Below are positions 46,642 to 49,377 of a DNA stretch of 64,000 nucleotides, one piece after another; positions within the stretch are counted from its first letter, which is position 1; the number at the start of each line of letters is the position of its first letter. Position numbers and translations under genes: made by a program. The stretch is from NCBI RefSeq assembly GCF_022846255.1, contig NZ_AP025682.1; one strand, given 5' to 3'. This stretch comes from Escherichia coli (GTDB taxonomy: Bacteria > Pseudomonadota > Gammaproteobacteria > Enterobacterales > Enterobacteriaceae). Under the pieces are notes generated by a model. That model saw nothing but the letters and a program-made list of their open reading frames with translations, ran no database searches and was not told the origin of the DNA.

Positions 46642-47100
46642 TTATAGAGACAAGTCCTGCAGTCGCTCCGATAAGTCTCCAGTAGCCAACTGCTCTGCGT
46701 CGATATCTTCCTTGACCTGTTGATGCCAGGTTGTTTCATCCCACAGCTCAAACTTGTTGAACTGTCCAACCAGCATCACTTCTTTTGTCAGCCCGGCATG
46801 TTGCCGCAGTACTGGCGCGATTAACAATCGACCTGCGCCATCCATCTGACATTCGCTGGCATGACCTAACAGTAGGCGCTGCACACGGCGCTCAACCGGG
46901 TTCATGCTCGACAGACGCGATAATTTTTGCTCGATAATTTCCCATTCAGGCAGGGGGTAAAGCAGCAGGCACGGGTGATGAATGTCAATGGTGCAAACCA
47001 TTTGACCGGCAGCGTTCTCAAGCAGCTGTTCCCGATAACGGGTAGGCACTGATAAGCGCCCTTTGCTGTCGAGATTGACTAACGTTGCTCCCCGGAACAT
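46642..47100 (-). CDS. mraZ: transcriptional regulator MraZ (152 aa)
   Basis: [27 protein letters not shown]...; track ORF extended by 12 codons. Confidence 0.95.
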
Positions 47101-47119
47101 GCCAGCCTCACCCCTTATT

Positions 47120-47144
47120 CCCACTTTGCCCCACAATTTCCCAC
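47120..47144 (-). promoter_or_regulatory. MraZ operator: three GTGGG direct repeats at 10-bp spacing in the mraZ 5' region
   Basis: Plus strand shows cccac at 47120-47124, 47130-47134 and 47140-47144 (GTGGG on the mraZ-coding strand), 20-45 nt upstream of the mraZ ATG. Confidence 0.6.
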
Positions 47145-47701
47145 TGAAAGGAGTTTACGGAGCGGAGGAAAAGCTTGTCAAGCCAGTCACAAGGCATACC
47201 GAGGTAAAAAACCCGATGTTTACGGCTAATATCAGCGTTGTTTATTTTACGTCCAACGTGCGAAGCAAATTAACGTTATGAATAGCTGTAAGAAAAAATC
47301 CCTCATCGTCATCACCGTTTTAAAATGACTCACTATTTTCCACAGCAAATATAAAGTGTCAGTTTGCGACGCGAGCGGCATTTTAGGACATATCTTCCCC
47401 GGTTAACAGTCCCTGTTGCGTCTGTGTGGCGCTTGATGCCAGCGGGTTTGCGCAAAAGCAAAGAAAAGTGTTTGTTAAATCGGCAATTCATCTCTGCATG
47501 TAACAAAATAATGCAAAAACGCGCTATCGATATCACTTAATTATTGTGAATTTCAGCTGGTGAGGTAATTAACGGGCAGGTTTAAAAGCATTTATCAATA
47601 ATAGCCAGGAATAGTCTTATTTACTTTAAGGATATTGATGTCCATTCCCGTACTCAACGCGCCAGAGAGAAATTCACCTGGCGCGTATTTTTGTTCGCGG
47701 C

Positions 47702-48706
47702 TTAGCTACGGCTGAGCACGCCGCGGCGATAGAGATTACGTTTAATGCGCGTTAAACCAGGTTTTGGCTTACGCGGTTCGTCCAGGCTTGCCAGGACAAT
47801 CTCCAGCACACGCTCTGCGACATCGCGGTGACGTTGAGCCACTGCCAGCACCGGGCACTGTAAGAAGTCGAGCAGTTCGTTATCGCCAAAGGTGGCAATT
47901 GCCAGGTCAGAAGGCAGTTTGCCGTCACGACGTAGCGTGACATCCATCACCCCTTGCAACAACGCAAACGACGTTGTGAACAGTGCCTGCGGCATCGGAT
48001 GCGTTTCCAGCCATTTTTCGAATAACTGGGCAGCCGCCTCCCGCTCATAGCTGTTGGCATAAAGGAAATGCACTTCGCGAGGATCATCTTTCCAGGCAGT
48101 ACGGAAACCTTGTTCACGCAGGAAGCTGACAGAAAGCTCCGGCAGCGCGCCAAGATAAAGTACCGTCTCGGCGGGAAACTTACGTAACTCTTCCGCCAGC
48201 ATTTCGGCATCATCCTGATCGGCACCAACCACGCTGGTGAAGTGTTCACGATCGAGGGCGCGGTCCAGCGCGACAATCGGGAACGGGTCGTTAGCCCAGC
48301 GTTGATAAAAAGGATGCTCAGGTGGCAACGACGTCGAAACAATAATGGCATCAACCTGACGCTGTAAAAGATGCTCGATACAACGCATTTCGTTGTCGGG
48401 CTGATCTTCCGAGCAGGCAATCAGCAGTTGATAACCCCTTTGCCGCGCCTGGCGTTCAAGATAGTTAGCGATGCGGGTATAGCTGGTGTTCTCCAGATCG
48501 GGGATCACAAGACCAATAGAACGTGTGCGTCCAGCACGAAGCCCAGCTGCCACGGCGTTCGGGTGGTAATTGTGCTCACGCACCACAGCCATGACTTTTT
48601 CAACGGTTTTGTCGCTCACACGGTATTGCTTCGCTTTGCCGTTAATAACATAGCTTGCAGTGGTCCGCGACACTCCCGCCAGCCGAGCGATTTCATCCAG
48701 TTTCAC
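47702..48706 (-). CDS. cra: catabolite repressor/activator Cra / FruR (334 aa)
   Basis: LacI-family [28 protein letters not shown]... Confidence 0.96.
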
Positions 48707-48885
48707 AATTGCCCCTTGCGTAAAATGTAAAAACCATAGCCATTGTACTGGTATGGGTTAAATTCATTAACATCTAAGCGCAGAAAATTAACTGCGGCAA
48801 CTGCTTTTATTCCAGGTTCCCACTGATTTCGCAAAAAAAGCCCAACGTGACATGTTGGGCTGCAAATTGCGCATTGAGATCATTC

Positions 48886-49377
48886 TCAACGCATTATTTT
48901 ATCGCCGCGCGAAAGTCCGACTACACCAGAGCGAGCAACTTCCACAATTTTCGCCACATCGCGAATCGATGCTAAAAATGCATCAAGTTTATCGCTGGTG
49001 CCTGCTAATTGAACGGTATAAAGCGAGGGTGTGACATCGATAATTTGCCCACGGAATATTTCCGTATTACGTTTCACTTCGTCACGCCCGTAGCCGCTGG
49101 CCTGAATTTTCACCAGCATGATTTCCCGCTCAACATGCGCACCCTGCCCCAACTCGCTCACGCGTAATACATCGACCAGCTTGTGTAATTGCTTTTCGAT
49201 CTGCTCAAGCACTTTTTCATCGCCCACGGTCTGGATGGTCATACGCGATAATGTCGGATCGTCGGTTGGCGCAACGGTCAGGCTTTCAATGTTGTAGCCA
49301 CGCTGGGAAAAAAGGCCAATCACGCGGGATAACGCACCTGATTCATTTTCGAGTAAGACTGATAATATCCGGCGCAT
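48886..49377 (-). CDS. ilvH: acetolactate synthase III small (regulatory) subunit (163 aa)
   Basis: [26 protein letters not shown]... (ACT domain); track ORF extended by 10 codons. Confidence 0.95.

Follow-up and report, generated by a model that had tools for sequence, protein, structure and literature searches.

The sequence directly behind the cra gene of Escherichia coli raises the question of which strand, if any, is served by a GC-rich hairpin located there. The hairpin lies within a window of 64,000 nucleotides, the whole stretch of DNA analysed here (assembly GCF_022846255.1, contig NZ_AP025682.1). On the plus strand, opposite to cra, the stem is followed by a run of T residues. The initial annotation took this run as a possible sign of a terminator for an unannotated transcript running against cra out of the cra-mraZ spacer, perhaps with a small protein encoded across the stem, and mentioned a poorly oriented cra terminator as the other possible reading. 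We examined the hairpin, the reading frame and the surrounding spacer by sequence comparison and by inspection of published transcript-end tables.

The window is oriented as the reverse complement of the ilvIH-cra-mraZ-rsmH region of K-12. A segment of 661 bp round the hairpin is 100% identical with several complete E. coli genomes and 98% identical with K-12; the spacer aligns without indels, and the K-12 coordinate equals 136734 minus the window coordinate. The cra DNA is 100% identical in E. coli genomes where the gene is annotated as 'cra: catabolite repressor/activator', and its K-12 counterpart is b0080 (88028-89032). The annotation of NC_000913.3 holds no feature between cra and mraZ, an Rfam scan of 46900-48000 at E<=1 gave zero matches, and our literature search found no relevant paper on the cra terminator or on the cra-mraZ (fruR-yabB) spacer. 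The features discussed below are collected in Table 1.

Table 1. Features of the cra-mraZ region, in window coordinates.
Feature	Position	Strand	Basis or remark
cra (fruR) CDS	47702-48706	minus	ORF list; stop TAA at 47702-47704
cra 3' UTR	47652-47701, 50 nt	minus	stop codon to mapped end; TRS table gives 50 nt, end 89081
cra mRNA 3'-terminal stem-loop	47657-47686	minus	folds on both strands, conserved pairing, fold of the TRS authors
cra transcript 3' end	47652 (K-12 89082)	minus	SMRT-Cappable-seq and TRS; 5-6 nt beyond the stem, base verified on the K-12 sequence
C-over-G region, possible Rho-loading (inferred only)	47540-47636	minus	C/G skew downstream of the hairpin
cra-mraZ spacer	47101-47701, 601 bp
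Pmra	TTGACA-18-TAAACT, 47181-47152	minus	PWM 13.7
mraZ	46642-47100	minus	ORF list

A GC-rich hairpin behind the cra stop codon

The 9-bp stem noted in the initial annotation was confirmed. Nucleotides 47657-47665 pair with 47678-47686 around a loop of 12 nt; the core of the stem is formed by CGCGCCAG (47658-47665) and CTGGCGCG (47678-47685), and A47657·T47686 is the ninth pair. The T-rich tail was also found on the plus strand as described, reading ATTTTTGTT at 47687-47695 with the T-run proper at 47688-47692. The minus-strand sequence beyond the stem, TGAGTACGG, is poor in U. Fold z-scores were -3.2 for the plus strand and -3.0 for the minus strand. Perfect 8-bp GC-rich stems with a T-rich tail were present at about 9 loci in the window, compared with 0.25 expected from Markov-1 simulations, and the hairpin is far beyond what chance would give. 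The consensus terminator scan accepts loops of 3-8 nt only and missed the hairpin because its loop of 12 nt exceeds the limit of 8 nt; a hairpin scan of our own was written instead. We also considered a REP element and rejected it, the stem being unlike that of REP; a REP-like insert is present at the same position in Citrobacter koseri.

We then compared the site across the family. Through Cra, 80 Enterobacteriaceae loci were retrieved, and 72 of them entered the hairpin comparison; the hairpin finder, which accepts perfect stems only, overlooked imperfect ones in 26 of the 72, so that its counts are lower bounds. Almost all of these loci carry a GC-rich hairpin within a few nucleotides of the cra stop, with sequences that are unrelated between genera. 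Kosakonia, Cedecea, Phytobacter and Franconibacter have a textbook hairpin with a T-run on the cra strand (for example, AAAGGCAGCGCAAGCTGCCTTTTTTG), and in Enterobacter, Klebsiella, Raoultella and Escherichia the T-run is absent from this strand. The arrangement with an A-run only was seen in Escherichia alone. The comparison thus offers a view of U-tracts that come and go at one orthologous terminator.

Within Escherichia, pairing in the stem was preserved in 63 of 63 cells over seven haplotypes, and 7 of the 12 loop columns were variable. The stem was invariant in the sampled E. coli haplotypes, with variation in the loop and the flanks. The stem of E. whittamii differs by one compensatory C-G to U-A double change. 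In E. albertii a C-G pair has become U·G, which pairs in the cra-sense RNA only, and the hairpin there has a calculated stability of -19.4 kcal/mol in the sense RNA versus -11.0 in the antisense RNA. Since the covariation score was reached in 83 of 500 shuffles, with one double change only and a small sample, the covariation and conservation seen in these alignments would support a structure in the cra-sense RNA rather than prove it. The sequence AAAAAUA, which precedes the stem on the cra strand, is kept across Escherichia; read from the plus strand, a run of 4-5 T is present in all four Escherichia species examined, whereas the rest of the 3' UTR diverges. Escherichia sp. L002 and the E. coli haplotype of L082/L083 have a run of 4 T only. 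The window has the tail UUGAGUAC on the cra strand; in K-12 it is UAGAGUAC, and L002 and E. albertii share UCGAGUAC. In E. coli WEM25 (NZ_CP061530.1; locus L088, 787-1484) an IS1A element is inserted at window position ~47655, 2 nt from the base of the hairpin and on the side downstream of cra, with the hairpin and cra intact.

The cra mRNA ends at the stem-loop

Published 3'-end data were inspected for both strands. SMRT-Cappable-seq, which reads full-length primary transcripts (start of cra at K-12 87968/87969), lists a cra (b0080) transcript on the K-12 plus strand from a TSS at 87968 to a TTS at 89082, labelled 'novelTTS'. Among 94 reads from the cra TSS, 20 stop at the TTS, 24 stop within 50 bp downstream, and 6 pass through; the median read-through at the TTS is 119 nt, and a cra-mraZ-rsmH-ftsL read-through unit is present in the same table. 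The TRS analysis of RNAtag-seq gives a 'Primary' cra terminus at 89081/89082 with p ~1e-20, in the rows + 89076-89086 (peak 89082; Primary, cra) and + 89078-89087 (peak 89081). The fold of the 3'-terminal 52 nt by the TRS authors is the same hairpin, at -19.3 kcal/mol and with U counts of 1 and 1. These results show that the cra mRNA ends at the stem-loop and that the stop is leaky, with ends over the next 50 nt and some read-through to mraZ-rsmH-ftsL.

The suggestion of a poorly oriented cra terminator is therefore supported by two independent datasets, which end cra at 89081/89082, and by the folding of the same hairpin. In the Term-seq of Adams et al., no 3' end was called at the cra hairpin on either strand; this absence carries little weight for the opposite strand, because the cra end itself is also uncalled there. 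The feature is an ordinary one, and high-throughput tables already list it as the 3' end of cra. The gain is small: a cra 3' UTR with its length fixed and one more 3' stem-loop without a U-tract in a class that has been described.

The manner in which this end is formed is a separate matter. On the cra strand the mRNA ends a few nucleotides 3' of the stem in both datasets, and no U-rich tract of ~7-8 nt follows the stem as it does in an intrinsic terminator. Classical intrinsic termination on this strand is doubtful because the tail has no U-tract. The stem-loop is stable and stands at the steady-state 3' end without U-rich sequence after it. Rho-dependent E. coli transcripts have been found to possess precise ends behind stable stem-loops with no U-rich tail (Dar & Sorek 2018, PMC6061677). 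Termination itself takes place further downstream, and the stem-loops then stop PNPase and RNase II; a C>G skew follows them, and terminators can switch type by gain or loss of U (PMC6061677).

The cra end resembles this class in several respects. The mRNA has a precise 3' end directly behind a stable GC-rich stem-loop, the tail is poor in U, and the sequence downstream has more C than G, with a C/G ratio of ~2.0-2.1 in 78-nt windows starting 20-40 nt beyond the stem on the cra strand. There are also additional diffuse ends just downstream, the presence of a U-tract changes from genus to genus, and the gene is weakly expressed. The flank upstream of the stem is different. An A-tract before the stem is not typical of the Rho-dependent class (PMC6061677), whereas AAAAAUA stands there in cra. 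The bicyclomycin table of Adams et al. has no entry at K-12 8902x-8909x.

The comparison with a canonical or bidirectional intrinsic terminator is also mixed. Shared traits are the GC-rich hairpin right behind the stop codon, the A-tract upstream of it, the 3' end a few nucleotides beyond the stem, and the full hairpin with T-run at the orthologous sites in Kosakonia, Cedecea, Phytobacter and Franconibacter. Unlike a canonical terminator, the Escherichia site lacks a U-tract on its own strand (UUGAGUAC) and has one on the opposite strand only; the loop has 12 nt, and there is no convergent gene that a bidirectional terminator could serve.

On this basis, we consider it probable, at roughly 0.8, that the cra mRNA has this hairpin as its 3'-terminal stem-loop, a leaky one without a U-tract, and that the 25-codon frame over the stem arose by chance. 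The stem-loop may act as an inefficient intrinsic terminator and probably also blocks 3'-to-5' exonucleases. Transcripts terminated further downstream, probably by Rho, would probably be trimmed back to it. The plus-strand T-run would then be the A-tract that is common before terminator hairpins, read from the other strand; it could be an A-rich flank of the kind usual for terminators, or what is left of a terminator that once had two sides. The retention of a 4-5 T run in all four Escherichia species would then be a relic or a side effect. Sequence alone can mislead about the strand served by a T-run, since an A-tract is frequent upstream of terminator hairpins.

Plus-strand transcription and the 25-codon frame

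Other readings of the hairpin have to be weighed against the one given above. It could be a neutral leftover that now serves neither strand, as the missing U-tract on the cra strand and the fast sequence turnover downstream of cra between genera might suggest. However, the cra mRNA ends exactly at the hairpin in two datasets, the stem stays invariant among sampled E. coli haplotypes where loop and flanks vary, changes between species keep the pairing, and nearly every Enterobacteriaceae locus compared has a hairpin here in spite of unrelated sequence; we regard a leftover as highly improbable. It could also be, in addition or mainly, a one-way intrinsic terminator for plus-strand transcription from the cra-mraZ spacer, yielding a short RNA and keeping antisense transcription out of cra. 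Its form on the plus strand is canonical, with a GC-rich stem-loop of 9 bp and a U-rich tract, ATTTTTGTT, directly after it (7 T in the best 8-nt window), and the T-run is kept in all Escherichia species examined when the rest of the 3' UTR is divergent; the loop of 12 nt, outside the 3-8 nt of the scan, is atypical for efficient terminators. A possible source of such an RNA is a symmetrical -10 at 47597-47603. Cappable-seq places a start of transcription at K-12 89143 (window 47591), in the direction of mraZ, with TATTAT (47603-47598) as its -10 element. An AATAAT on the plus strand overlaps this element in the 18-bp divergent arrangement from which bidirectional initiation often arises in E. 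coli (Warman et al., bioRxiv 10.1101/2020.01.31.928960). Divergent firing from this site, which is plausible, would predict a plus-strand TSS at ~47609/47610 and an RNA of ~85 nt. The likeness to the divergent transcripts of Warman et al. ends at this point, the plus-strand RNA here being a prediction, with no 3' end in the tables examined.

The transcript data speak against a plus-strand terminator. No opposite-strand 3' end was present near K-12 89037-89043 in the TRS, SMRT-Cappable-seq and Term-seq tables; from 83.6 to 89.8 kb the TRS rows listed are without any 3' end on the K-12 minus strand, and the SMRT-Cappable-seq and Term-seq tables have no opposite-strand end at 8902x-8909x. Such tables are thresholded, and a missing entry is no proof. 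SMRT-Cappable-seq libraries are reportedly size-selected, and short RNAs may be missed in them. No plus-strand promoter passed the consensus scan, the best PWM score being <=9 compared with 13.7 for Pmra, and the putative plus-strand -10 begins with a base other than T and is not accompanied by a -35. Only 4 T remain of the T-run in the L082/L083 haplotype and in L002, and the E. albertii stem is much weaker as an antisense RNA. Taken together, a plus-strand terminator is unlikely. A related proposal is that the Escherichia hairpin is a strand-switched terminator, which has lost the U-tract of the cra strand, has kept the T-run of the other strand, and stops short divergent transcripts that start at 47597-47603. 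This would insulate cra from antisense transcription, and strains with an intact SD might expose a young, evolving peptide frame to ribosomes; we hold such a switch to be quite improbable. The unannotated plus-strand transcript thus found no support, with zero opposite-strand 3' ends in three datasets and no strong plus-strand promoter.

The proposed small protein was examined in the same way. The ORF is present as claimed, on the plus strand at 47638-47715 with 25 codons, ending in a stop codon (47713-47715) and covering the final 14 nt of cra, and so is the SD-like aagga (47628-47632), 5 nt before the ATG at 47638. Such a combination is within chance expectation: the window contains 514 ATG ORFs of 20-50 codons, 9 of which have a 5-nt SD-like core 5-10 nt upstream. 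Besides the ATG with its well-spaced aagga, an Escherichia-specific small protein made from a plus-strand mRNA would be favoured by the ATG in all six Escherichia sequences and by a 25-codon frame that is open in E. coli, L002 and E. albertii. Against it, E. coli and L002 show five nonsynonymous differences (I3S, N7Y/D, E10V, R11G, Y17S) and one synonymous difference, and where the frame overlaps cra there are two more replacements, L22F and R21Q. K-12 has lost the SD (aagca), and the site reads atgga in E. whittamii and Escherichia sp. E1V33, where the ORF ends at about codon 19. Codon 11 is TGA in strain 7784, which represents one of the sampled E. coli identity classes, and the IS1 in WEM25 splits the ORF, setting the first codons apart from the rest. 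The segment 47628-47701 is only 25% identical to other genera, a random level, compared with 56% for the whole spacer, and the ORF has no counterpart outside Escherichia. No Pfam or NCBIfam model matches it, and it is unannotated both in K-12 NC_000913.3 and by PGAP.

The apparently conserved residues (APxxNSPxAYF) owe their constancy to the conserved stem, whose arms encode them. The terminator and the small protein are also in conflict with each other, because plus-strand termination at ~47693-47696 would remove codons 20-25 together with the stop codon. Conservation of the ORF, when checked, was not found: replacements predominate, nonsense, shortened and IS1-split forms occur, and the frame is absent outside Escherichia. 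With no purifying selection, with interruptions in some E. coli strains and with no protein family, the claimed small protein is unsupported, and we give it hardly any credence. We judged that the 25-codon ORF is not a gene. Of the initial interpretation, the half concerning a cra terminator stood, and the half concerning a plus-strand transcript and small protein did not.

Transcription and conservation within the cra-mraZ spacer

A more promising subject is the 601-bp spacer itself, which holds internal transcription start sites, an RNA of ~120 nt and strongly conserved blocks upstream of the cell-division cluster. Its length is ~560-660 bp in 71 of the 72 loci. The only mraZ promoter described in the literature is mraZ1p, whose leader has 38 nt. 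Cappable-seq places three TSSs within the spacer on the mraZ strand, at window positions 47591, 47497 and 47374 (K-12 89143, 89237 and 89360), with scores of 6.2, 2.1 and 9.4, respectively, compared with 27.2 for Pmra at 89590. Fitting -10 elements are TATTAT at 47603-47598 and TAAAAT at 47385-47380.

Between the hairpin and the first of these start sites lies a conserved motif. At 47606-47619 the minus strand reads TAAGACTATTCCTG. This fits the pattern TNRGA-N4-TCYN, which 70 of 72 Enterobacteriaceae loci carry on the cra/mraZ strand at most 170 nt from the cra stop, compared with 4.8 expected from shuffles. The RcsB box has been given as TN(G/A)GAN4TC(T/C)NA (PMC7913699), and the TAAGACTATTCCTG motif agrees with it at 13 of 14 positions, the final A being missing in most loci; the site is a candidate RcsB site only. 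It occupies -28 to -15 relative to the 89143 start site of K-12.

On the mraZ strand, the 89360 TSS and a 3' terminus at 89480 listed as 'cra.mraZ.IGR' mark the bounds of an unannotated RNA of ~120 nt at 47254-47374 (K-12 89360-89480). This RNA has no Rfam match and no terminator hairpin at its end. Its folds repeatedly pair GCAAACTGAC with GTTAATTTGC, and the pairing is beyond a covariation test because both arms are invariant. Three non-coding blocks on the minus strand (47347-47390, 47499-47515 and 47261-47275) are 91-95% identical across 67 non-Escherichia species, the main conserved block of the spacer being TGTCCTAAAATGCCGCTCGCGTCGCAAACTGACACTTTATATTT. An overlapping 44-codon ORF at 47247-47381 on the minus strand is not conserved; indels break its frame, an early stop occurs in Citrobacter, and there was no significant family match.

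Two further elements flank the region. Just upstream of cra, PGAP annotates a 28-aa 'fruR/shl operon leader peptide' in WEM25, and the corresponding frame in the window lies at ~48788-48874 on the minus strand, within a 33-aa ORF at 48788-48889. At the other end, between Pmra and the mraZ start, three GTGGG repeats spaced ~10 bp apart (47101-47144, minus strand) are highly conserved; we take them to be the MraZ operator repeats (Eraso et al. 2014).
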